Shown here piece by piece: positions 12,187-36,740 of a stretch of DNA of 64,000 bases. The notes under the pieces are model-generated. The model saw only the letters and a program-made list of their open reading frames with translations. It did no database searches and had not been told where the DNA came from. Every line of letters starts with the position of its first letter. The first letter of the stretch is position 1. The DNA is from Escherichia phage VEcB. Location of the stretch: sequence record NC_052663.1; one strand, written 5' to 3'. A program made the position numbers and the translations under genes.

Positions 12187-12999
12187 TTACTTAGTCAAAT
12201 GATCTTCTATCATTTTTATGAAAGCAGGATTGCTAAAAGCATCTGCTGCCTTTTCTCTGTAAACAAAGACTCCTCTATCTTCGTAAAGAAGAGTTTCTTC
12301 GTAATTAATTCCTGGGTTAACAACAATCATTTTTGTACCCATATTAAGTGCAGGGAATAATTCCCAATTAAAATTGATAACTTGGTTTGAACATCCTACT
12401 ACAACAACCAAATCTTGCATGGTCAAAGTATCAAACAAGTGAGCCATATCTGCATACAAAGGTGCAGCCTCACCAAAAAATACAACATTAGGCTTCACCC
12501 AGTTATAATCATCTATGTTTATACTATTGTAACCAATGTCTACCAGTGTTTTGTAATCTCCAGGATGCATACGGTAAACTACTTCATGGAGATACCCGTG
12601 CACGTGAATAACAGAATCCCTGTCCACACCTGCTCGCTCTAGTAGATCATCGACGTTTGTTGTCAAGTTTACTACTTGGTTAGGATATTCCTTAAACCAC
12701 TTTGCTATTTGAATATGTGCAGCATTAGGTTGTACATCTTTAAGCTCAACACGTCTTTTGTTATAAAATTCGTGTGTTTTGGCATACAAATCCATACCGT
12801 TCTCGTCTACACCACCGACCACTGGAAGATCTGGTGATGTTCTCACACGATAACCTGCTTGGAAAGCTCCAATATCGCAGATCTCTTCTAAATCCCATTC
12901 TTCCCATAGGGCACGACCACTATCTGTGTCTGTTCGGAATGTTCGAATCCCACTATCTGCACTTAAACCAGCTCCACTAACAAAAATTACTCTTCGCAT
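12187..12999 (-). CDS. Sir2-family NAD-dependent protein (deacylase/ADP-ribosyltransferase/NADase fold)
   Basis: GAGLSADSGIRTFR, PNAAH, TTNVDDLLERAG, HVHG and VFFGE motifs; no zinc-ribbon cysteines. Confidence 0.7.
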   Translation of the reverse strand: MRRVIFVSGAGLSADSGIRTFRTDTDSGRALWEEWDLEEICDIGAFQAGYRVRTSPDLPVVGGVDENGMDLYAKTHEFYNKRRVELKDVQPNAAHIQIAKWFKEYPNQVVNLTTNVDDLLERAGVDRDSVIHVHGYLHEVVYRMHPGDYKTLVDIGYNSINIDDYNWVKPNVVFFGEAAPLYADMAHLFDTLTMQDLVVVVGCSNQVINFNWELFPALNMGTKMIVVNPGINYEETLLYEDRGVFVYREKAADAFSNPAFIKMIEDHLTK

Positions 13000-13556: not shown

Positions 13557-13595
13557 ATAAAGCCCCTGCTTGGGGCTTTGGTTAAGTTTTACGGA

Positions 13596-14204
13596 TTATA
13601 CCAGACTTTTAAGGTACTTGTCAAGGGCTTCTTGATCACCTTGACAAACATAGCAACGGAAGTCTTGAGCAGAAGGTTCTTTGTCCTCGTCCCAATCCCA
13701 GTAGACAGTACCTTTATAACGTGAGCCTGGGAACTCGAAATATGCTGTATGAGTAATATGATGTGGGCCACCCCAAAACTGTGTAAAAGTAAATTGAGGA
13801 TACGCTGCTTTAACTGTATTTTCAAACCAAGTTTTACGATCTAATGCTTCGTTTATAAAATAAGCATGGCGTTCCATTTCATCCCAGTCTTTCCAAACGC
13901 ATTTTTCGTCCAGAGAAAAAACAAAATCTTCACTGTTGAATTCATCTGTATCTTCCAAAATATCATAATCATGTGCACTAGGTATCCACCATCCAGCTTC
14001 TAATAGTGCTTTCACGGGTACAAAACCTTTTTCAGCATATTGATCAAATTCTTTTACTCTACGTACAGTGCAGTATTCATCTTCACCACCAATGTCCAGT
14101 AGACAAGCACCTTTGCGTCTTGCTGCAAGACCATGTGTATCAAAAACTACAACACTACCTTCACCATCTTCACGATCTACTTGATATGCAACTTTTTGAG
14201 TCAT
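13596..14204 (-). CDS. hypothetical protein
   Basis: 202-aa ORF; terminator-like hairpin at 13561-13580. Confidence 0.45.
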   Translation of the reverse strand: MTQKVAYQVDREDGEGSVVVFDTHGLAARRKGACLLDIGGEDEYCTVRRVKEFDQYAEKGFVPVKALLEAGWWIPSAHDYDILEDTDEFNSEDFVFSLDEKCVWKDWDEMERHAYFINEALDRKTWFENTVKAAYPQFTFTQFWGGPHHITHTAYFEFPGSRYKGTVYWDWDEDKEPSAQDFRCYVCQGDQEALDKYLKSLV

Positions 14205-14327
14205 ATTACCCCCAATGTATATGGGAAATTAACCAAAAGATAAATTCCCAAAAACACCAACCAAGAAAAGTTAATGGAATTATAAAAGCTATCAGAGCAG
14301 TCTTCCAGCCTTTCCACAATGTTTCCA

Positions 14328-15317
14328 CTATTCCTCCATACATTTAAGAATATGTGCAATGACAGGTATAGTCCAACCGTTACCTAACATCTTATATGCT
14401 TGTGTGTTACTACTCACTTTAAAGTAGTCATCTGGCACACCTTGCAAACGGCAACACTCTTTAACGGTTAACTTTCTATAATGTACGCCTTCACTCAATT
14501 TTTCAAAAGCATCTAAATATCTTCCAGGTGGAATGTAAGCTAATAGTACGTCTTTCGGCACAGTCGTGAGGCAACGAGTTTTTTCACTGTCCTGAACTTC
14601 CAAACAATGTACCAAACGATCAGTTTTAGATGTACTACGTTTGCCATTTTCATTAATTCTACGCCCATATATTGCTGCTGGATAAAAAACCAGTTGTCTG
14701 CGACTCTTTTCAAAATACTGTTCTATATTACCACCTTTGGCATAATTTGCATCTATGCAATAAGCCTTATCTCTGTCTACAATACTATCATCTTCAATGA
14801 TATCTTGCAACACTTCATTGGTAATATCCCAAGGTTTTATTTCCCAGTTGCACCAGTATAAACGTTGTCTATTCTGTGCCGTGAAATCTGCGGAATTAAT
14901 GAATACGGGATCAACACCTAAGTAACTTGTGATCACGTTTTCCCACTCCACTTTCATCTTAACGTTTTCAAGCATGAACTTAACATTAGGGTTAAACTTT
15001 TTAATATGTTCAAGAATCTCAACATATTCGAAGAATAGCTTAGATCGCGGATCTTGAAAGTTCAAACCCTTACCAGAAGAAGAGAAGCCTTGACACGGAC
15101 TACCACCTAACAAAAGATCAATTTCTCCCCACGGGATATCCCATTCTCTCCATTTTGTAACATCACCTAACTGAATAATATCTGGAAAATTTGCTTGGCT
15201 TTCAGCTACGGCAAATTTGTCTAATTCTGAAGCGTAATATGTATCTACTTCAATACCTGCACTTTTTAGCGCAAGCATTCCTCCTGACATACCATCAAAA
15301 AGACTTAAAACTTTCAT
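14328..15317 (-). CDS. DNA (cytosine-5)-methyltransferase
   Basis: FDGMSGG (motif I), GGSPCQGFS (PCQ motif IV), MLENVK (ENV motif VI). Confidence 0.85.
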   Translation of the reverse strand: MKVLSLFDGMSGGMLALKSAGIEVDTYYASELDKFAVAESQANFPDIIQLGDVTKWREWDIPWGEIDLLLGGSPCQGFSSSGKGLNFQDPRSKLFFEYVEILEHIKKFNPNVKFMLENVKMKVEWENVITSYLGVDPVFINSADFTAQNRQRLYWCNWEIKPWDITNEVLQDIIEDDSIVDRDKAYCIDANYAKGGNIEQYFEKSRRQLVFYPAAIYGRRINENGKRSTSKTDRLVHCLEVQDSEKTRCLTTVPKDVLLAYIPPGRYLDAFEKLSEGVHYRKLTVKECCRLQGVPDDYFKVSSNTQAYKMLGNGWTIPVIAHILKCMEE

Positions 15318-15319
15318 TA

Positions 15320-15730
15320 TTACTTCTTCTCCTTAACACTAACTGGTAATTCTGCCTTGAGGCAGAAGTTTAAACGGTAAGCCTCATTCTCATTTAAAAG
15401 TACAGATTCACACGATAACCAGAACAAGAGATCCTCAATACCAGGGCTGTTAAGCCAACAGTGCAGAAGAGAATGTTGTTCTATATCAATGTAATTTAGT
15501 AACAAGGCTTGTAAGGCGTAACTAGTTCCTGTCGTTTTTGCTTTTTCAAGGATGATATTGTGTTTACTAACAACTTTCTTCCTAAGACCAAACCATTTAT
15601 TAACAACAACAGTCTCCTCTTGTAGTTGTTTTCTTATTTTCTCACATTCTTTAACTACAATCTGCATCTTATCCACTGCTGATTGAAGTTGTTCTTTTGT
15701 TGGGTTTACAAAATAATCACTATAATACAT
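15320..15730 (-). CDS. hypothetical protein
   Basis: 136-aa ORF directly upstream of C5-MTase. Confidence 0.45.
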   Translation of the reverse strand: MYYSDYFVNPTKEQLQSAVDKMQIVVKECEKIRKQLQEETVVVNKWFGLRKKVVSKHNIILEKAKTTGTSYALQALLLNYIDIEQHSLLHCWLNSPGIEDLLFWLSCESVLLNENEAYRLNFCLKAELPVSVKEKK

Positions 15731-15787
15731 GCTAACCTCCTCTTCTGTTTTTCTGTAGTTTATTCGAAAAAACTGGTGTTGTCAACA

Positions 15788-15810
15788 AAAAACCCGCCGA
15801 AGCGGGTTTA
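15788..15810 (-). terminator. rho-independent terminator (ACCCGC-CGAA-GCGGGT)
   Basis: on minus strand hairpin is followed by TTTTTT; downstream of 15813-16070. Confidence 0.55.
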
Positions 15811-15812
15811 TA

Positions 15813-16070
15813 TTATTCTACAGGAATTTCTTCACCAAGAGAAACTTCTAAACGGAATGCTTTACTTTCAATACATTCACTACCTTTTAGAAAATCAAAT
15901 TGCACTATAGACTGACTTAATAGAATAGATAGAATCACATCGCAATCTTCACTAGGAGCTAGATGTTTGTATTCTTCCTTCAAGGTAACATCATAAAAAC
16001 ATAAATCCCCTACTCCTAGTTCATCCCATCCTTCCCACGCATCTACAAAGTTAAACTCTAAACCTTTCAT
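15813..16070 (-). CDS. hypothetical protein
   Basis: 85-aa ORF. Confidence 0.4.
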   Translation of the reverse strand: MKGLEFNFVDAWEGWDELGVGDLCFYDVTLKEEYKHLAPSEDCDVILSILLSQSIVQFDFLKGSECIESKAFRLEVSLGEEIPVE

Positions 16071-16591
16071 ACAACCTCCTCGTAGTTGTTATTGTGTTTT
16101 ACTGTCTCAACATACAATAAAGATTCCATCTGTAATACATTACCAGAAATAATAAACCCATAAGCCATTTCAGATGTGTCTATATCATATGCCCCGTCTT
16201 CCGGTTTAGCAAAGTGTAAAACTATTTCATCTGGGTTTTCTTCATCCCATAGTTTAGAAATTTTCCGAACCAGAATGTTAGCTAAAATAGTTGACATTCG
16301 GGATAAAGCTGTATCCTCATATCTTTTAAAACCTAGCCAATAGAGGTTAAGAATTTCTACTTCTTCTTGTGTTAAGTTTTTGTCTAAAGTAATCAGATCT
16401 GTAGAGCACGGCGTTTTTGTTGAACCTACTGTTACAAAACCTGGAGTGTTATGAAAAACAATCTTAACTTTATCACGTATAAAGTTTAAACCTTGTGCCT
16501 CAACTATATATTGTATTGTAGGTACAATATCGTTTGTTACGTCAATAAAACTATCTTTAATGATGCTTATATTATTTCTGGACAAGACCAT
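16067..16591 (-). CDS. hypothetical protein
   Basis: 174-aa ORF. Confidence 0.45.
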   Translation of the reverse strand: MVLSRNNISIIKDSFIDVTNDIVPTIQYIVEAQGLNFIRDKVKIVFHNTPGFVTVGSTKTPCSTDLITLDKNLTQEEVEILNLYWLGFKRYEDTALSRMSTILANILVRKISKLWDEENPDEIVLHFAKPEDGAYDIDTSEMAYGFIISGNVLQMESLLYVETVKHNNNYEEVV

Positions 16592-17150
16592 TCTCCTCTA
16601 AAATAGGCTTAATAAATTCGAAAATTTGTTTTTTACTTTTACCTCGAATATTAAAACAAGGGACATTAAACTTTTTAGCCAACATCCAAGCTGTTCTTGT
16701 ACCACCTAAAGGATCTCCATTTTTATCTGTATTTGCACAAGCTAAAAGAAAACAAGATGGTTTTGGATTCTCAAGATCTCTTCCAAGAACTTGGTGGATA
16801 TTTCTTTGATGTAATTTTTTAGCACCTTGAGATAATCTGTCCCAAGCTGGATGCAATTCTTTTGCATATTGCAAGGTTAGAGCATAGTTTACACTATCTG
16901 GTCTGTCAAGAACAATAACCTCTCCCTCTATTTCATTACCTTTAAACGAGAGCCAAGGGATGTATATTTCTTTCTTTGTATTGTTCCCACTATCATATAC
17001 CCCGCATTCAAATGCGGAATCTGCACCTTCTGCTTTACCAGATCGCAAAATGAACCATGTAGACAACCATTTTGCAACAGATACCATAGTATCCCATTCT
17101 TCGTCTGTAATATCTCTGCTACCAACACCTGTGTAGAATAAATCGCTCAT
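16572..17150 (-). CDS. DprA/SLOG-like Rossmann-fold protein
   Basis: start moved to internal Met after AAGGAG (ORF track end 17234); GVGSRD...SGKAEGADSAF resembles DprA-type motif. Confidence 0.35.
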   Translation of the reverse strand: MSDLFYTGVGSRDITDEEWDTMVSVAKWLSTWFILRSGKAEGADSAFECGVYDSGNNTKKEIYIPWLSFKGNEIEGEVIVLDRPDSVNYALTLQYAKELHPAWDRLSQGAKKLHQRNIHQVLGRDLENPKPSCFLLACANTDKNGDPLGGTRTAWMLAKKFNVPCFNIRGKSKKQIFEFIKPILEENGLVQK

Positions 17151-17160
17151 GGTTTTCTCC

Positions 17161-17481
17161 TTAACAAGTAATATTGGGAGTAACAATTGGATTAACAATT
17201 GGAGTAATAGGGTACGTAAACCAAGGGCTTCCAATTTCCCAAGGATTATAAGGTCTACGAGGATCGTATGGAGGAGTTACTTCAGGCTTTTTCCAAATCT
17301 CCGCTAATTGTTTCTTCCATTTATCCCTTGCTGTCTCATTATCTTCATCCAACTGTTCATCATTATCTTTTATTTCTGGTTTTGGAAATAAAAGCTCTTT
17401 GACTAACTCAACATCTTCCGTCTCAATAGTAGTTTCTTTCGTAAGTTCTCCTACTGTTTCTTTAATTGTGATTTTATACAT
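17161..17481 (-). CDS. hypothetical proline-rich protein
   Basis: 106-aa ORF. Confidence 0.35.
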   Translation of the reverse strand: MYKITIKETVGELTKETTIETEDVELVKELLFPKPEIKDNDEQLDEDNETARDKWKKQLAEIWKKPEVTPPYDPRRPYNPWEIGSPWFTYPITPIVNPIVTPNITC

Positions 17482-18227
17482 TAGTCCTCCTCTAAAGTAG
17501 AATAAAATTGTAACGTATTTGAATCATCAAAATATGCAAAGGTTAAATTACCATTGAAGCAAGATCCTGTGTCCATATATACCCTATTACTGCTAATTAC
17601 AGGTTTAGGAACATAAGAATGCCCGTGAAATACATAATCTACTCCTGAGACTCTAGGAAGAAGAATCCCTTCAAGTGCGCAATCTATCATATCACGATCC
17701 CACATTAAAGATTCTGTGAATCGAGAAACTTGCTCTTTATTCATATTCAAACAAAATGGCAAAACTTCTGTCACTGGTAAATGTTCCAAAACTGAAGGAT
17801 ACCCACCGTGAATAAAGCCTAGTTTCATATTACGATAATTGACAACAAGTACAACAGGTAAATCTTCTAGCATCAAAGCAAGAGCAGTTGCACCCTCTTC
17901 TCCACACTCGTCTAGAACTGTATGGCCTCCGTTCTGAAACCAACATTCGTAATATCGTCTATCACCTTCTAGCAACCCTTTAATCATCATATCTTCATGA
18001 TTTCCACGAATACCATAACGATTTAGCTTCCTGGTGAATTCAACAACACAACGAAAATTCTGCTTGCCGCGATCTGTAAGATCTCCTAAAGATACAACAA
18101 CATCTTGATCTCGGATACCTAAAGTATTAACACCTTTCTGGTACAAATCAAAGCAACCATGTAAATCACCAATAATAAACAGGTCTTGATCATCTTTTAC
18201 ACTAATTTCTTGATATACTAGCATCAA
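17481..18227 (-). CDS. Ser/Thr protein phosphatase (PPP family, lambda-PPase-like)
   Basis: GDLHG, GDLTDRG, GNHE metallophosphatase motifs. Confidence 0.85.
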   Translation of the reverse strand: MMLVYQEISVKDDQDLFIIGDLHGCFDLYQKGVNTLGIRDQDVVVSLGDLTDRGKQNFRCVVEFTRKLNRYGIRGNHEDMMIKGLLEGDRRYYECWFQNGGHTVLDECGEEGATALALMLEDLPVVLVVNYRNMKLGFIHGGYPSVLEHLPVTEVLPFCLNMNKEQVSRFTESLMWDRDMIDCALEGILLPRVSGVDYVFHGHSYVPKPVISSNRVYMDTGSCFNGNLTFAYFDDSNTLQFYSTLEED

Positions 18228-18550
18228 CTCTCCTCAAAATCCATAAGTATAAAGATATTAACTTTACCTTCTATATTATGTTCTACAACAAGATCTGCAA
18301 ATTCTTTGTAGGCTTTTTCTTCTATTTGTTCAATGTGAGACGCTACATCTTTGTATATAGCGTCACCATCTACTTTAACAAGGAGGAATAGAGATCTCAC
18401 TTCAATCTCTTTATTTTTACGGGGTAGAAAATCGACGGCTTCTTGTATACGCCAGCCGAGATACCCTGGAGTCCTTTGAATATCCTCCAAATGACTTTCT
18501 AAGATTTCCCTTCCTTTGTCTATTAAAGCCTGTTCTGTCGTTATTTTCAT
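18224..18550 (-). CDS. hypothetical protein
   Basis: 108-aa ORF, ATGA-type coupling. Confidence 0.45.
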   Translation of the reverse strand: MKITTEQALIDKGREILESHLEDIQRTPGYLGWRIQEAVDFLPRKNKEIEVRSLFLLVKVDGDAIYKDVASHIEQIEEKAYKEFADLVVEHNIEGKVNIFILMDFEES

Positions 18551-18560
18551 CCCCTTCTCC

Positions 18561-19133
18561 TTAATGTGTTAATGAAACTGCATAACTAAACACAGGTTCA
18601 GATATTACATCGGCTACAGTAATAAAAACGTCTTCGTCTTGAGTTGTTTCTACACGACATACAGTTACACCATTCACCACGAATTCAACGCAATGTGGAA
18701 TATCTTCACAAACGAAGGTAGTGTAAGTAACACCCAAAGCATCATACAAAGATTTAACAGTGTTTGCAAGTGCCGCAGTTTCTTCTTTTTCTGAGACAAT
18801 GAATGCTGTAACAATAAGATTGTTTGCATAGTTTAAACTGTCCTCTATAGCCAATGATTTACAAGGTAGTAATGCAAAATATTTACCTGGTTTAATCAGA
18901 CCTGCTTCCCATTGATTCAAAATTGCCTGGGATGGTTTAGTAATATAAAACAGATTTTCACTTGGGTTATCAATATTACTTCTGGCGATACAACGTGAAG
19001 GATTATTAATATCAAATACATGATCAAAATCTACACAAACAGGTAAACTGAAAGGTGTGAATTTTTTATCTAATAATCCTATGGCTGATAATATGTTTGC
19101 TGTGCTTATCTTCCCGTTAAAAGCTAAACGCAT
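18561..19133 (-). CDS. hypothetical protein
   Basis: 190-aa ORF. Confidence 0.45.
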   Translation of the reverse strand: MRLAFNGKISTANILSAIGLLDKKFTPFSLPVCVDFDHVFDINNPSRCIARSNIDNPSENLFYITKPSQAILNQWEAGLIKPGKYFALLPCKSLAIEDSLNYANNLIVTAFIVSEKEETAALANTVKSLYDALGVTYTTFVCEDIPHCVEFVVNGVTVCRVETTQDEDVFITVADVISEPVFSYAVSLTH

Positions 19134-19144
19134 ATTTAACTCCT

Positions 19145-19348
19145 TTAACTAGCAACCGTAACTTCCGAACTTTCTTCTTTCGTGCTGTCTACGATATGCC
19201 TGGTGGCAATATACGAGACTTGCCAGTTACCATCTGGTGTAGTCTCAATAAGTACCCTATCTACTTCGAGAAAATGCAAAAATTCAACCATCGCTCGCTT
19301 CGATAGGAATTGTTTTTTAACAGTCTCCTCAAAAGATTGAACTGCCAT
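19145..19348 (-). CDS. hypothetical protein
   Basis: 67-aa ORF. Confidence 0.35.
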   Translation of the reverse strand: MAVQSFEETVKKQFLSKRAMVEFLHFLEVDRVLIETTPDGNWQVSYIATRHIVDSTKEESSEVTVAS

Positions 19349-19357
19349 GTTTCCTCC

Positions 19358-20020
19358 TTATTTAATATTCAATTTTGCACAAAGACGTTGTACCGCTTTG
19401 GCATCGAACAAACTCCCACGAATAGTTCTCTTTCCTGATTCATTCAGATGCTTTGCAATCGTCATATATGGCGTTTTACAAGCTCTGTATGCAACTAAAG
19501 AATCTTTTAAAGAAAGCGCAAACTCTCTTGAGCGTTTTGCTTCTTCCGTTTTCGTATAATCTGTTCTTTTGTATTTAGGGTTTGCTGCACCAAGAAGCGT
19601 TCCCTTCGCTTTTGCTACCTTAAGGCTCTTCTTAACACGATCAGATATTGCACGAGCCTCTTCTTCTGCCAGAACTGCTAAAATATTTATTATCATATTT
19701 TCAGCGGAGGGCATAGTTGCTATCCGTACATTAATCATCTCTAACAAGGTTGCAACAGAAGCTGTGTTACGTCCCAGACGGTCAACCTTAGCAACAACAA
19801 GTGTAGCACCTGTTTCTTTGCAAAGATTAACAGCTTTTACAAGCTCTCTACGTTGCTTCCAATCGCCTTTACCAGAATAAAACTCTGCAAAGCTACCTAC
19901 AATAGTATAATTTTCTTGTGAATCCAGGAAGCGTTGGATATCTGCTTCCTGTGATTCTATACCATACTGGTTGCCTTGTTGTTTCTTCTTAGAAAGTCGA
20001 TGATACAGTACAAACTTCAT
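19358..20020 (-). CDS. serine recombinase (resolvase/invertase family)
   Basis: N-terminal YHRLS catalytic Ser context, GATLVVAKVDRLGRN motif, C-terminal HTH. Confidence 0.75.
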   Translation of the reverse strand: MKFVLYHRLSKKKQQGNQYGIESQEADIQRFLDSQENYTIVGSFAEFYSGKGDWKQRRELVKAVNLCKETGATLVVAKVDRLGRNTASVATLLEMINVRIATMPSAENMIINILAVLAEEEARAISDRVKKSLKVAKAKGTLLGAANPKYKRTDYTKTEEAKRSREFALSLKDSLVAYRACKTPYMTIAKHLNESGKRTIRGSLFDAKAVQRLCAKLNIK

Positions 20021-20077
20021 AATACCCTCCTGTTCTGTTGCAGGAAGTATGCACTACCTTAATGTTAAAGTCAACAG

Positions 20078-20281
20078 TTAAGTAGTGGTAATATCATCTT
20101 CTTGAATATCAGGGTCAACTTCTGCAAAGATAGCCTCTACAGGAATTTCTTCACCTGCTATTCTAGAAAGAAGCACTGAACCAATAGCTTTTGCGTGTTC
20201 TTCGGATTCCGCATAAACATTAGTTCCTGTGTCTTTTTTCTTAGTTTCGTTAAAATATACCAGATAGTAATTGTATGCCAT
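20078..20281 (-). CDS. hypothetical acidic protein
   Basis: 67-aa ORF. Confidence 0.35.
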   Translation of the reverse strand: MAYNYYLVYFNETKKKDTGTNVYAESEEHAKAIGSVLLSRIAGEEIPVEAIFAEVDPDIQEDDITTT

Positions 20282-20532
20282 TATTCATCCCAATCGTTGT
20301 TGCGAGCACTTTCAAGAACCTTGACAACTTCTGCGTACTCTACAGCTAAACCAGCACACACTTCAGCTTGTTTTGCAATTGCTTGCTTAAAGAACATAGC
20401 GATTGCAACACTCTGTGTCGTGTGAATGTTATCTGCTTTAGTTGATACGTGAAGATCAAAATCTTCTTCATCAAAGGTGAGTTCCATAGTAACAATAAAT
20501 TTCTCGGTCATAAAAATGCTCCTCTTAAACAA
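20281..20532 (-). CDS. hypothetical protein
   Basis: 83-aa ORF. Confidence 0.4.
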   Translation of the reverse strand: MFKRSIFMTEKFIVTMELTFDEEDFDLHVSTKADNIHTTQSVAIAMFFKQAIAKQAEVCAGLAVEYAEVVKVLESARNNDWDE

Positions 20533-21034
20533 AATAGAAAGGTTGAGTTAAACCCAGCCTGTTTTTTGGGTCGTAGACGTACCAAGCATATGCTGTCTTA
20601 TCAGTACCACCTGCAACAAAAGATGGTCGTTCAGAAAGAACAATCAAATTTGTTGGTGGGTTCTGTTTATGGAATTCCCTTCGTTTAATAGACTCTAGGA
20701 ACCCAAGACGCAACAAGTATATGCAAACGTCTGCTTCTTTTAAGCTCTTTTGCAAGAACTCAAGTGCAAGTCTGAATGGTGGATTTGTGATTATAATATC
20801 CGGCTTAGTATGCCATTCGTGGTTAAAATAATCCTTCCCTTCTTCTAACTCACAATATTCTGATCCTTCTGGAAAATGTTGATAAATTGCAGCAGCAGCG
20901 CCTTTACACGGTTCTGCAAAAATAAAACCTTCTTCTTTAAGGTTATTAAAATCTATTACACTAAATAATGCATTTATACATTTTTGTGGAGTAGGATAGT
21001 AATCAGTTGGTGGACGATCATACTTATTTGCCAC
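20525..21034 (-). CDS. putative DNA N6-adenine methyltransferase (small phage Dam-like family)
   Basis: DYYPTP N-terminal motif and IITNPPF catalytic motif IV in a 169-aa protein. Confidence 0.5.
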   Translation of the reverse strand: MANKYDRPPTDYYPTPQKCINALFSVIDFNNLKEEGFIFAEPCKGAAAAIYQHFPEGSEYCELEEGKDYFNHEWHTKPDIIITNPPFRLALEFLQKSLKEADVCIYLLRLGFLESIKRREFHKQNPPTNLIVLSERPSFVAGGTDKTAYAWYVYDPKNRLGLTQPFYFV

Positions 21035-21452
21035 TACTTAAAATCTCCTCTTTTGTGATTTCAGGGTTTTCTTCAAAAACCATAATATCTCTTAAGAACG
21101 TTAATTCTTCCATAGATACTGGTATTGTATCTTCTTCTGTTTTTCGTTTACATAAATCGTCAAGAAAGTTTTTAATGTTTTCTGACACATCGTAAAATTT
21201 CAACAGTTGATAATCACAGGAGGAGATCCTATCTAGTTCTAACATTCTTTCTAAGATATTTTCTGTGTTGCCGTACAACACACGAACTTCTCCGAAAGGG
21301 TTGACTGAATATTGTGAAGTTCTGAACCATCCCTTTTTAGATACAGTGTAACGCTGTTCTGCTAAACTTTCAATAAAATTTTTAGCTCTTTTACAGTTTT
21401 GTTCTAAAGAGTAGTAGGCTTTTTCTACAAAGGTTACAGGTACTGGTAACAT
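21024..21452 (-). CDS. hypothetical protein
   Basis: 142-aa ORF. Confidence 0.45.
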   Translation of the reverse strand: MLPVPVTFVEKAYYSLEQNCKRAKNFIESLAEQRYTVSKKGWFRTSQYSVNPFGEVRVLYGNTENILERMLELDRISSCDYQLLKFYDVSENIKNFLDDLCKRKTEEDTIPVSMEELTFLRDIMVFEENPEITKEEILSSGK

Positions 21453-21463
21453 ATCTCCTCCTA

Positions 21464-21485
21464 ATAACCCCCCCTTGAGGGGGTT
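21464..21485 (-). terminator. terminator-like hairpin CCCCC-TCAA-GGGGG
   Basis: GC hairpin between PhoH stop and next gene. Confidence 0.4.
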
Positions 21486-21494
21486 TATACTAGA

Positions 21495-22298
21495 TTAATT
21501 ATCAGAGGACACTTTATCAAGTTTTTCAGAGACTGTCAATACTTTTTCTTGTGATTCTTTCATTTCTGCTAAAATACTTTCAGCTTCATCGCTATCAGGA
21601 TCACCAGTCAACAGCATACTAATTAGTTGCTCCTTGCTGAAGTTCAGAATATCTTCCGCTGTTAACTCCAGTTGTTCTTCGATCTCTTCGATAAAAGTTT
21701 CACCGCCGGAAAAAGCATCTCGCAGTTTTGCAACTTCCATCGCTTCTTCTGGAGTTGCCCCTGCATCTAAAGCTGCTAAAGCAAAATCTGCCCCACTACC
21801 AACAGCATAATAATCTTCAGTTAAAGGATATGCTCGCGTTGGATTATTACCCTCGTGCATATAAATTTTACCGTCTGGATGAACAACCAATGCCACAAAC
21901 TCTTCATCTTCTTTATCGGGATCTGACTGGATCACCAAACCTGGGATTGTCTCTTGTGCTGCTAGTTTATCAGTCTTATCTCCAGATAAGAAACCAATTT
22001 GATCATCACCTACTTCTGTCGGGTTTTTAAGGAAAATCAACTTTCTGAAATCACCAGCTTTAAGCATTTGCAATGCTTTCCATAGTGCTGTTGTCGTTTT
22101 TCCTGTTCCTGCTGGGGCATTAACAATGGTTAAATCATTCCAAACCATGCTTCTTACAATAGCTTCTTGATTCCCAACAGGGGTAAATTCATCAAGACGG
22201 TAATCATCATTTCCTACTGCTTTAGCCGCATAACGACTGGCACGTTTGTCATCATTGGCTGCTGATTGACGACGAGCCTTTGCGGTTTTATTTCCCAT
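21495..22298 (-). CDS. phoH: PhoH-like ATPase
   Basis: Walker A AGTGKTT in PhoH-like context. Confidence 0.6.
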   Translation of the reverse strand: MGNKTAKARRQSAANDDKRASRYAAKAVGNDDYRLDEFTPVGNQEAIVRSMVWNDLTIVNAPAGTGKTTTALWKALQMLKAGDFRKLIFLKNPTEVGDDQIGFLSGDKTDKLAAQETIPGLVIQSDPDKEDEEFVALVVHPDGKIYMHEGNNPTRAYPLTEDYYAVGSGADFALAALDAGATPEEAMEVAKLRDAFSGGETFIEEIEEQLELTAEDILNFSKEQLISMLLTGDPDSDEAESILAEMKESQEKVLTVSEKLDKVSSDN

Positions 22299-35777: not shown

Positions 35778-36740
35778 TTAAATTCCAATAACAGTGTTTA
35801 CACGCTTCTCTTTGCTACGCAAATTAACACGTCCACGAGACAGGCTATTACATGATGTGCATCTTAGCACTTGGAATGTACTAACCGCTGTTGTGTAAAC
35901 CTTACCAGGAACAACTTCAAGGTGCTCTTTACCGCAACGAGGACAACGAAGTTTTTCATCGTCATAGAATGCAGATACGTTAGGATGTTGTGGAATCCAT
36001 GCACGAAGTTTGATGTAAAGATCTCTAAGAGAAACAACATCACCATCATTGTATGTTTGCATACGGAAGAAGGCATGTCTATCTCCTTCGCAACATGCTT
36101 TCCACAAAGGAAAACCTTCATTATCAAGTTTAAAGTTTTCTGTATCAAAATACAAACACATTTCTTTAAGCGCATTAGAAGGTAGTGCAAACTGCTTCTT
36201 AGCTGCCTTGAGTGTATCAATTACAACATAATGTGATGGTGGCTCCATACCGTGAAAAGCAAAACGTTGGTTAATATAAGCCTTATCAAACTTAATACCA
36301 TTGTGCGCGATCACAATATCTGCATCGTCAAGCAAGTGCCAGAGATCTTGACATAATTCCCAATCATCTGTATGATCTATGTCAAACAAAGGGTAATTGC
36401 TAAGGTTCTTACCTTCTACTTCCCCTGTTTCTAAATCAGCAGATGAATAGGAAAGCAAGTAACCTCGACGAATAACTTGTTCAGGTGCAATAAAGGCTTT
36501 GAAACGTGAGAAGCTATACACAATCTCCGGTGCTGTCTCTACGTCAATAATTTTAATTACTGGCCCACCTTTATCTTGCGGAGCACCTCGATGTGGTGAA
36601 TTTACACGAGCTAAGTAATCATTTACTGTGCTCTTCTTAGTAGAACTTCCCAACACCTCTTGTGCAATCTTACGCGAAGAATAACCTTGTGCTTTCATAG
36701 ATACAATCAAGGCTTTCTGTTCGTCTGTTAATTTACTCAA
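35778..36740 (-). CDS. DnaQ-like 3'-5' exonuclease with N-terminal HTH and C-terminal zinc ribbon
   Basis: IIDVETAP (Exo I DxE) and VIAHNGIKFDKAY motifs; CPRCG...CTSCN. Confidence 0.55.
   Translation of the reverse strand: MSKLTDEQKALIVSMKAQGYSSRKIAQEVLGSSTKKSTVNDYLARVNSPHRGAPQDKGGPVIKIIDVETAPEIVYSFSRFKAFIAPEQVIRRGYLLSYSSADLETGEVEGKNLSNYPLFDIDHTDDWELCQDLWHLLDDADIVIAHNGIKFDKAYINQRFAFHGMEPPSHYVVIDTLKAAKKQFALPSNALKEMCLYFDTENFKLDNEGFPLWKACCEGDRHAFFRMQTYNDGDVVSLRDLYIKLRAWIPQHPNVSAFYDDEKLRCPRCGKEHLEVVPGKVYTTAVSTFQVLRCTSCNSLSRGRVNLRSKEKRVNTVIGI

Follow-up and report, generated by a model that had tools for sequence, protein, structure and literature searches.

The closest described counterparts of the two genes considered here, which encode putative DNA methyltransferases of a coliphage, are triggers of retrons. 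The C5-cytosine 'Dcm' enzyme of phage K42 is the trigger of retron Ec86, and the authors of the retron-Ec86 study superposed a phage 'Dcm' C5 methyltransferase, different from the one described below, on DNMT3A. The small N6-methyladenine (m6A) enzyme of the vequintavirus Bas51 (phage WalterGehring, MZ501111; gene bas51_0176, 177 aa) is the trigger of retrons Asa1 and Squ1: all Bas51 escape mutants of these retrons are mutated in the 'Bas51 N6 adenine methyltransferase', and the engineered substitutions D69G, D79G and T83P in this enzyme abolish retron defence (PMC12548924, PLoS Biology 2025). In the same study, native nanopore sequencing revealed m6A at GATC motifs of Bas51 DNA, nearly all of which disappeared with T83P, the over-expressed enzyme was toxic, and the D69G, D79G and T83P mutants were viable, with normal plaques when the host carried no retron (PMC12548924). 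Here we describe two methyltransferase genes located between positions 14,328 and 21,034 of a 64,000-nucleotide stretch of Escherichia phage VEcB (NC_052663.1; hereinafter the window, meaning the whole stretch analysed). The two genes are:

14328..15317, minus strand, predicted C5-cytosine DNA methyltransferase, 329 aa (open reading frame (ORF) list, PF00145, TIGR00675; ortholog of phi92 gp043 and bas61_0190)
20525..21034, minus strand, predicted minimal N6-adenine DNA methyltransferase with gamma-class motif order, 169 aa (ortholog of phi92 gp056, bas61_0203 and bas51_0176)

Over their full length, positions 14000-21500 of the window match those of more than 50 Justusliebigvirus phages in GenBank, including phi92, EmilieFrey (Bas61), muut, alia, Paula and BME3, at 98-99% identity, and the whole window runs colinearly with approximately the first 64 kb of the phi92 genome; judging by these sequence comparisons, the source is a phi92-like coliphage of the genus Justusliebigvirus. 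The window genes from ~12 kb to 48 kb lie on the minus strand and are devoted to nucleotide metabolism and replication (ribonucleotide reductase, thymidylate synthase, ligase, exonucleases, rmlABCD). Both methyltransferase genes are already known, being annotated as cytosine or adenine methyltransferases in many GenBank records of the genus; in EmilieFrey, the labels are 'Dcm-like C5 cytosine methyltransferase' (bas61_0190) and 'putative N6 adenine methyltransferase' (bas61_0203).

The reading that we favor, with a probability of about 0.72, is that these genes encode two stand-alone orphan phage DNA methyltransferases that would mark the phage's own replicating DNA and confer a narrow benefit rather than broad resistance to restriction. 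It is built on the observed fold, motifs, orphan status, orthology and conservation of the two proteins; GATC methylation of DNA has been demonstrated in the Bas51 ortholog only, and we infer the target motifs of the small and the C5 enzymes, the timing of their expression and the physiological benefit. Under this reading, both enzymes would be expressed, most likely from host-type promoters, with S-adenosylmethionine (AdoMet) as the donor and the replicating phage DNA as the substrate. The C5 enzyme would flip out the target cytosine and methylate it at C5 via Cys75 (PCQ) and Glu117 (ENV), the mechanism of all C5 methyltransferases. The core of the small enzyme, formed by YPTP (motif X), EPCKG (motif I) and TNPPF (motif IV), would methylate adenine at N6 in DNA and complete GATC methylation beyond the reach of the host Dam on the fast-replicating phage DNA. 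The benefit could consist in shielding of the enzymes' own motifs from cognate nucleases and, in the case of GATC, also in escape from nicking by MutH or in the control of replication and packaging.

The C5 enzyme matches PF00145 over profile positions 1-322 of 324 (E 2.1e-43; 149.4 bits against a cutoff of 22) and TIGR00675 at 142.2 bits (cutoff 100.65). Its catalytic motifs I (FDGMSGG), IV (GGSPCQGFS, with Cys75), VI (ENV, with Glu117), VIII (QNRQR), IX (RKLT..E..RLQ) and X (GNGWT) vary little or not at all in an alignment of 40 relatives, and the start codon, ATG at 15317, is preceded by AAGGAG 11 nt upstream. The protein is accordingly annotated here as a predicted complete, intact C5-cytosine DNA methyltransferase. 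Of the recognition region (~aa 165-275), the first half, VDRDK..CIDANY.KGGN..YFEK.RRQ, is conserved and the second (~aa 212-275) is hypervariable. At identity of at least 95%, the gene occurs only in Justusliebigvirus (53 records), followed, at ~50% identity, by relatives in ICP1-like vibriophages and jumbo coliphages. In a close relative with 58% identity (P0238), the methyltransferase and a dCMP/cytidine deaminase domain (PF00383) form a single fused protein.

The best matches of the C5 enzyme among PDB sequences are the catalytic domains of DNMT3A and DNMT3B (E 1.6e-23, residues 2-159), with M.HhaI and M.HaeIII just behind, and the top 43 Foldseek matches of its AlphaFold2 (AF2) model (pLDDT 84) are all DNMT3A, DNMT3B or DNMT3C (E 4e-20, TM score 0.73-0.77 on the target). 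The stretch aligned with these enzymes includes VLSLFDG...G, GGSPC, ENV and W..PVI. Unlike the DNMT3 proteins, the phage enzyme lacks PWWP and ADD domains as well as a DNMT3L partner, and its recognition region is longer, with the block VDRDK..CIDANY.KGGN specific to its phage clade. Sequence and model together point to membership in a DNMT3-like clade of phage orphans and not to a Dcm-like enzyme. Identity with the Dcm subfamily (NF007772) was rejected at 30 bits against a cutoff of 710, with only residues 280-328 (motifs IX-X) aligned; the C5 chemistry is common to this enzyme and E. coli Dcm or M.EcoRII, which target CCWGG, and 'Dcm-like' is the label of the GenBank curators. The Dcm target CCWGG is not strongly avoided in phi92-like sequence (observed/expected ratio (O/E) 0.74-0.91). 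The Dcm of phage K42 is 236 aa long, compared with 329 aa here, and neither CpG nor CCWGG specificity is to be assumed for the window enzyme.

The small enzyme starts with GTG at 21034, with GAGGAG 10 nt upstream, and matches PHROG 799 ('DNA methyltransferase') with E 1.7e-56 over residues 2-163. It has no Pfam match above threshold, no NCBIfam match and no phmmer match in PDB; the score against the Pfam family EcoRI_methylase is 13.4 bits, compared with the gathering threshold of 26.4 (family-wide best E 3e-4). Sub-threshold Pfam matches in 40 relatives are to EcoRI_methylase (30 proteins), MTS (14), Dam PF05869 (7), Eco57I (6) and N6_Mtase (5). A profile of 40 family sequences yielded marginal PDB matches (best E 0.018), with motifs X, I and IV colinear with those of HsdM. 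Altogether 237 homologs were detected, and among the 120 listed, which are 95-203 aa long (mostly 160-200 aa), none has a Pfam assignment.

In the window protein, the gamma-class motif residues follow the order X (Y13-P14-T15-P16), I (E41-P42-C43-K44-G45) and IV (N84-P85-P86-F87). In an alignment of 40 diverse members of the family, little or no variation is seen in DxYPTP (motif X), EPCKGxG (the AdoMet loop, motif I), the acidic E62 together with D68-Y69 (motifs II and III), D79-x-IITNPPF (motif IV) and, near the C-terminus, RPSF and TD..YAW. The AF2 model (pLDDT 90.5, pTM 0.87) is a class-I Rossmann methyltransferase, superposable on M.TaqI and HsdM, that consists of the bare core and an N-terminal helix with no extra domain. 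There is no C-terminal target-recognition domain, the chain ending ~20 residues past the last core strand, and no gene resembling an S subunit was found next to it among the scanned neighbors. The small enzyme belongs to a minimal amino-methyltransferase family, gamma-class in its motif order, that neither Pfam nor NCBIfam nor PDB represents. Compared with the gamma-class enzymes M.TaqI, HsdM, MmeI and M.EcoRI, it is less than half their size and lacks their target-recognition domain or specificity subunit.

About a quarter of the relatives of the small enzyme contain, between RPSF and TD..YAW (alignment columns ~183-220; aa ~139-143 of the window protein), a zinc-ribbon-like insertion of 25-35 residues with four Cys (C..C/KxC ... 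CxCGG), and this site is the best candidate loop for minimal DNA reading.

The genes are conserved to different depths. Each is present at identity of at least 95% in 53-54 phage records, with full-length frames in more than 50 independent isolates. The small methyltransferase extends from Justusliebigvirus (at least 95% identity) to Phapecoctavirus (~87%), Vequintavirus (47%) and Seunavirus- and Certrevirus-like phages (~50%), and its relatives at ~50% come from phages infecting Salmonella, Cronobacter, Klebsiella, Erwinia and Pectobacterium. This distribution suggests that the small methyltransferase is an ancestral core gene of the rV5-like supergroup, to which the C5 enzyme and a beta-class enzyme (see below) would be genus-specific additions.

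The link to an experimentally characterized protein comes from bas51_0176, which is 47% identical to the small enzyme over the full length (E 8e-46) and occupies the same position, between a protease gene and small ORFs, near PhoH. The residues whose replacement inactivates the Bas51 enzyme, D69, D79 and T83, align with D68 (of the DY motif), D79 and T83 (of TNPPF) in the window protein. Because the T83P mutation in Bas51 removes GATC m6A from DNA, the family can be regarded as one of DNA adenine methyltransferases, and, because of the orthology, GATC is the best guess for the small enzyme and most probably its target. The two proteins differ at 53% of the residues, in length (177 vs. 169 aa) and in motif IV, NPPY in Bas51 and NPPF here. 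E. coli and T4 Dam (MethyltransfD12, alpha-class) and PF05869 resemble the small enzyme in the probable GATC m6A product (as extrapolated from the ortholog), in orphan status and in being phage-borne; they differ from it in sequence family and motif order.

A scan of 14 flanking ORFs detected no nuclease domain, and none is present in seven sampled genomic contexts of relatives of either enzyme, all of which are phage-like. These contexts include three of the small family, examined for a linked nuclease, and those used in an attempt to identify the C5 target through such a nuclease: the two closest sampled relatives outside the phi92 group (P0131 and P0124, both metagenomic) reside in phage contexts and have none. 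With no cognate endonuclease adjoining either gene, both methyltransferases are orphans rather than parts of a type II restriction-modification system. An unrelated phage-like contig (L013:2501-4471) encodes a 496-aa C5 methylase followed, after 10 bp, by a 156-aa member of the small family, so that the pairing recurs outside the phi92 group.

These results confirm the observation of the preliminary description, made from the letters of the window, and support its interpretation in part. It had placed two methyltransferases exactly at these positions, and both are there, on the minus strand; the full C5 enzyme that it proposed is borne out by the end-to-end PF00145 match, the TIGR00675 score above cutoff and the complete set of motifs, and the two different chemistries (5mC and m6A), both those of DNA methyltransferases, likewise hold. 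So does the assignment of both genes to a single block, here the minus-strand nucleotide-metabolism and replication genes behind pattern matches to sigma-70-like promoters, and no cognate restriction endonuclease was found in the 14 flanking ORFs. The comparison of the small protein to Dam is apt with respect to function, given that the Bas51 ortholog produces GATC m6A, but not with respect to family: there is no match to MethyltransfD12 (PF02086), and PF05869 is absent from the window protein and appears below threshold in 7 of the 40 relatives (best E 0.006).

The features relevant to the expression of the two genes are:

13559..13579, minus strand, terminator-like hairpin that would end the transcription unit of the C5 methyltransferase
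15320..15730, minus strand, homolog of phi92 gp044, 136 aa (ORF list; no Pfam domain)
15785-15757, minus strand, sigma-70-like promoter TTGACA-17-TAAACT, which would drive the gp044 homolog, the C5 methyltransferase and two small ORFs
15809-15790, minus strand, terminator-like hairpin upstream of the promoter of the C5 unit
21024..21452, minus strand, conserved hypothetical ORF, homolog of phi92 gp057 (phrog_15078), overlapping the start of the small methyltransferase gene by 11 nt
21511..21539, minus strand, sigma-70-like promoter TTGACA-17-TAAAGT, with TG, upstream of the gp057 homolog and the small methyltransferase gene

The promoters and terminators come from a consensus scan and are pattern matches whose total count does not exceed the shuffled expectation. 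The stop codon of the gp044 homolog precedes the ATG of the C5 enzyme by 2 nt, and therefore the two genes are probably co-transcribed and translationally coupled. Host-type promoters would fit early or middle expression. The overlapping ORF 21024-21452 was also evaluated as a functional partner of the small methyltransferase; this idea was rejected, given that the two are not linked in Bas51.

The alternative that fares best among those considered is that the two enzymes provide an anti-restriction shield, whereby the progeny DNA is methylated in advance so that host type II (possibly also type I or III) nucleases cannot cut it; we regard this as a real possibility at less than even odds. Two orphan methyltransferases without nucleases are a classical phage pattern according to the reviews cited in the BME3 paper, and the shield would also fit the sigma-70-like promoters ahead of the genes, their location in the replication-gene block and the recurrence of the C5 and small methyltransferase pair in the unrelated phage contig. 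The distribution of sites was compared in ~105 kb of phi92-like sequence (the window plus EmilieFrey 1-50 kb), with the following counts for the most strongly depleted palindromes:

AAGCTT (HindIII), observed 0, expected 34.6
CTGCAG (PstI), observed 0, expected 27.6
GGWCC (AvaII), observed 0, expected 38.9
GGTACC (KpnI), observed 0, expected 16.7
GGATCC (BamHI), observed 0, expected 12.8
AGTACT (ScaI), observed 0, expected 18.1
CAGCTG (PvuII), observed 1, expected 16.5

NcoI sites are missing as well, so that the zero-count set including NcoI comprises sites expected 9-39 times each, and CATG is depleted in the same sequence (O/E 0.48, z -9.9). GATC (428 observed, 455 expected), GCGC (77 and 75), GCWGC, ACGT and TGCA are tolerated, and the persistence of GATC, GCGC and CCWGG amid strongly purged palindromes is what protection by methylation predicts. 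The motif statistics rule out the absent sites (GGWCC and others) as targets of the enzymes and do not single out any one target. The vequintavirus Bas51, unlike the phi92-like phages, shows no such purge.

The restriction phenotype speaks against a general shield. According to the BASEL raw data, EmilieFrey, whose sequence across this block shows ~99% identity, fails to plaque on hosts with EcoRI, EcoRV or EcoP1I and plates with a reduced efficiency of 0.1-0.36 on EcoKI and 0.1-0.4 on EcoCFT_II. The BASEL authors concluded that the phi92-like phages lack effective protection and are exceptionally susceptible to restriction-modification systems despite a putative dTDP-glycosylation machinery; no protective effect of the dTDP-sugar pathway is evident in these data. 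The sites of the three fully restricting enzymes occur in the window at the expected frequency:

GAATTC, observed 17, expected 18.5
GATATC, observed 26, expected 27.1
AGACC, observed 26, expected 24.0

The main visible defence is site avoidance (HindIII, PstI, KpnI, BamHI, ScaI and AvaII, 0 sites against 13-39 expected), and, given the extremity of the purge, it is this avoidance, not methylation, that constitutes the conspicuous anti-restriction signature. Since EmilieFrey is cut by EcoRI, EcoRV and EcoP1I, any protection would be narrow and limited to the enzymes' own motifs, such that methylation would cover at most tolerated motifs such as GATC, GCGC or CCWGG. Enteric hosts are Dam+, and nucleases cutting unmethylated GATC, while tolerable there, are not known to be common in them, which also counts against the shield. 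The self-protection proposed in the preliminary description thus fits the data poorly in its general form and survives, at most, for the enzymes' own motifs; nothing in the analysis supports the further suggestion that methylation adds to a sugar modification dependent on the rml genes.

It is also possible, although somewhat doubtful, that methylation primarily serves phage DNA metabolism: with GATC (or other sites) fully methylated on the fast-replicating DNA, MutHLS would be kept from nicking GATC that is unmethylated or hemimethylated, or else the methylation would set the timing of replication, packaging or gene expression. Dam methylation controls packaging in phage P1. Several observations are compatible with such a function: in Bas51, the phage enzyme, not the host Dam, is responsible for nearly all GATC methylation of the virion DNA; the window contains 255 GATC sites, ~4 per kb (O/E 0.93), with no avoidance where many other palindromes are purged; and, for a core gene of the rV5-like supergroup, housekeeping seems a better fit than an arms race. 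However, the C5 enzyme is left unexplained, and the Bas51 T83P, D69G and D79G mutants form normal plaques when no retron is present, which implies that the function of the enzyme is dispensable in the laboratory.

It appears very unlikely that the small protein is a tRNA or rRNA methyltransferase producing m6A or m2G. The absence of a DNA-recognition domain, the name TrmN6 given to a homolog in one GenBank record and the presence of tRNA-synthetase-like fragments among the neighboring genes could be taken to favor this possibility, but gamma-class DNA enzymes typically have, as this protein does, motif X (YPTP) at the N-terminus and motifs X, I and IV colinear with those of HsdM, the Pfam families that recur most consistently below threshold are those of DNA methyltransferases, and the T83P substitution in the Bas51 ortholog removes GATC m6A from DNA; the last experiment also argues against methylation of RNA or protein, the outcome that the preliminary description had named as contrary to its proposal. 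The least credible alternative, that either gene, or both, is a passenger that is decaying or inactive, would agree with the high restriction sensitivity of the phage and with methyltransferases being a liability against retrons, but is contradicted by intact catalytic motifs, by the presence of full-length frames, at identity of at least 95%, in over 50 independent isolates, and by the ribosome-binding sites and tight packing with neighboring ORFs.

Several points weigh against our preferred reading, that of two orphan methyltransferases marking phage DNA with a narrow benefit. Given the full restriction of phi92-like phages by EcoRI, EcoRV and EcoP1I, any protective role is at most putative. 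No methylation data for any phi92-like phage were found in the literature within our reach: the 2026 Durham paper on DNA modification covers T-even-like phages only, and nothing relevant was found in Picton 2021 or the rV5 paper. The promoters were called by matching to a consensus, and such matches are about as frequent as the background; GATC specificity is carried over at 47% identity only, with NPPF in motif IV of the window protein against NPPY in Bas51. Furthermore, the phi92-like phages carry a third, genus-specific methyltransferase outside the window:

35999-36730 of the EmilieFrey 1-50 kb stretch (L004), minus strand, bas61_0037, beta-class N6_N4_Mtase, 243 aa (PF01555, E 1.9e-30)

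This protein, with the motifs DPPY ... FSGSATT, is present in 54 records at identity of at least 99%, and its next relative is only 46% identical. The beta-class enzyme could be the one that methylates GATC, in which case the small enzyme would have another motif. The 75-120 kb stretch of Bas51 encodes neither a phi92-type C5 enzyme nor a beta-class one, and the division of labor may differ between the two groups of phages. Three methyltransferase genes were located in the inspected part of EmilieFrey, all but its 50-101.6 kb stretch; the BME3 paper asserts four, from BLASTx.

With respect to the small enzyme itself, a tentative and rather speculative possibility is that it belongs to a structurally uncharacterized, phage-restricted family of sequence-specific DNA m6A methyltransferases in which a 4-bp site is read by loops of the catalytic core alone. 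Perhaps the site is read via the beta6-beta7 loop (aa 133-148), where some relatives have the Cys4 insertion, and perhaps by a dimer on the palindrome, and in phi92-like phages, with their three methyltransferases, the enzyme may have shifted in specificity away from GATC, the motif of Bas51.

Several features of the surrounding region are of separate interest. In addition to the genes described above, the block encodes, in order and all on the minus strand:

12187-12999, minus strand, Sir2-family protein
16572-17234, minus strand, DprA-like protein
18561-19133, minus strand, histidyl-tRNA-synthetase-like fragment
19358-20020, minus strand, serine recombinase or DNA invertase (Resolvase domain, E 8e-22)
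21495-22298, minus strand, in-frame fusion ORF, 267 aa
23261-24091, minus strand, RmlD

The serine recombinase gene is located between the two methyltransferase genes of this strictly lytic phage. RmlD is part of the rmlABCD set, and glycosyltransferase genes are found elsewhere in the genome. The fusion ORF combines the N-terminus of PhoH (Walker A, aa 5-114) with the C-terminal part of an HslV-like protease. It stems from the loss of 1130 bp flanked by two copies of an 8-bp microhomology, TGTGCTGC (junction at 21955-21962), whereby the protease gene was deprived of its 5' end and phoH of its 3' part, and the gp059 homolog disappeared altogether. This junction is not covered by any of the 54 matching phage records, and hence the deletion is either private to this genome or an assembly artefact. 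In addition, several GenBank records (MG0656xx; A145, A150, A138 and others) bear the name 'Campylobacter phage', with C. jejuni given as the host; in these genes, they share 98-99% identity with phi92-like or rV5-like phages of E. coli, and the host labels are probably wrong, or else the preparations were contaminated.

As a case of orphan phage methyltransferases, a textbook theme, the finding is ordinary. What the analysis adds is a set of corrections: the small enzyme does not belong to the Dam family, the C5 enzyme is DNMT3-like, and the enzymes do not confer broad resistance to restriction. By analogy with K42 and Bas51, where sensing by retrons is documented, both kinds of methyltransferase would carry a cost, and such sensing is relevant to the choice of phi92-like phages, with their broad host range, for therapy. 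The residual interest lies in the small enzyme, a 169-aa protein that appears to achieve sequence-specific DNA methylation with no recognition domain.

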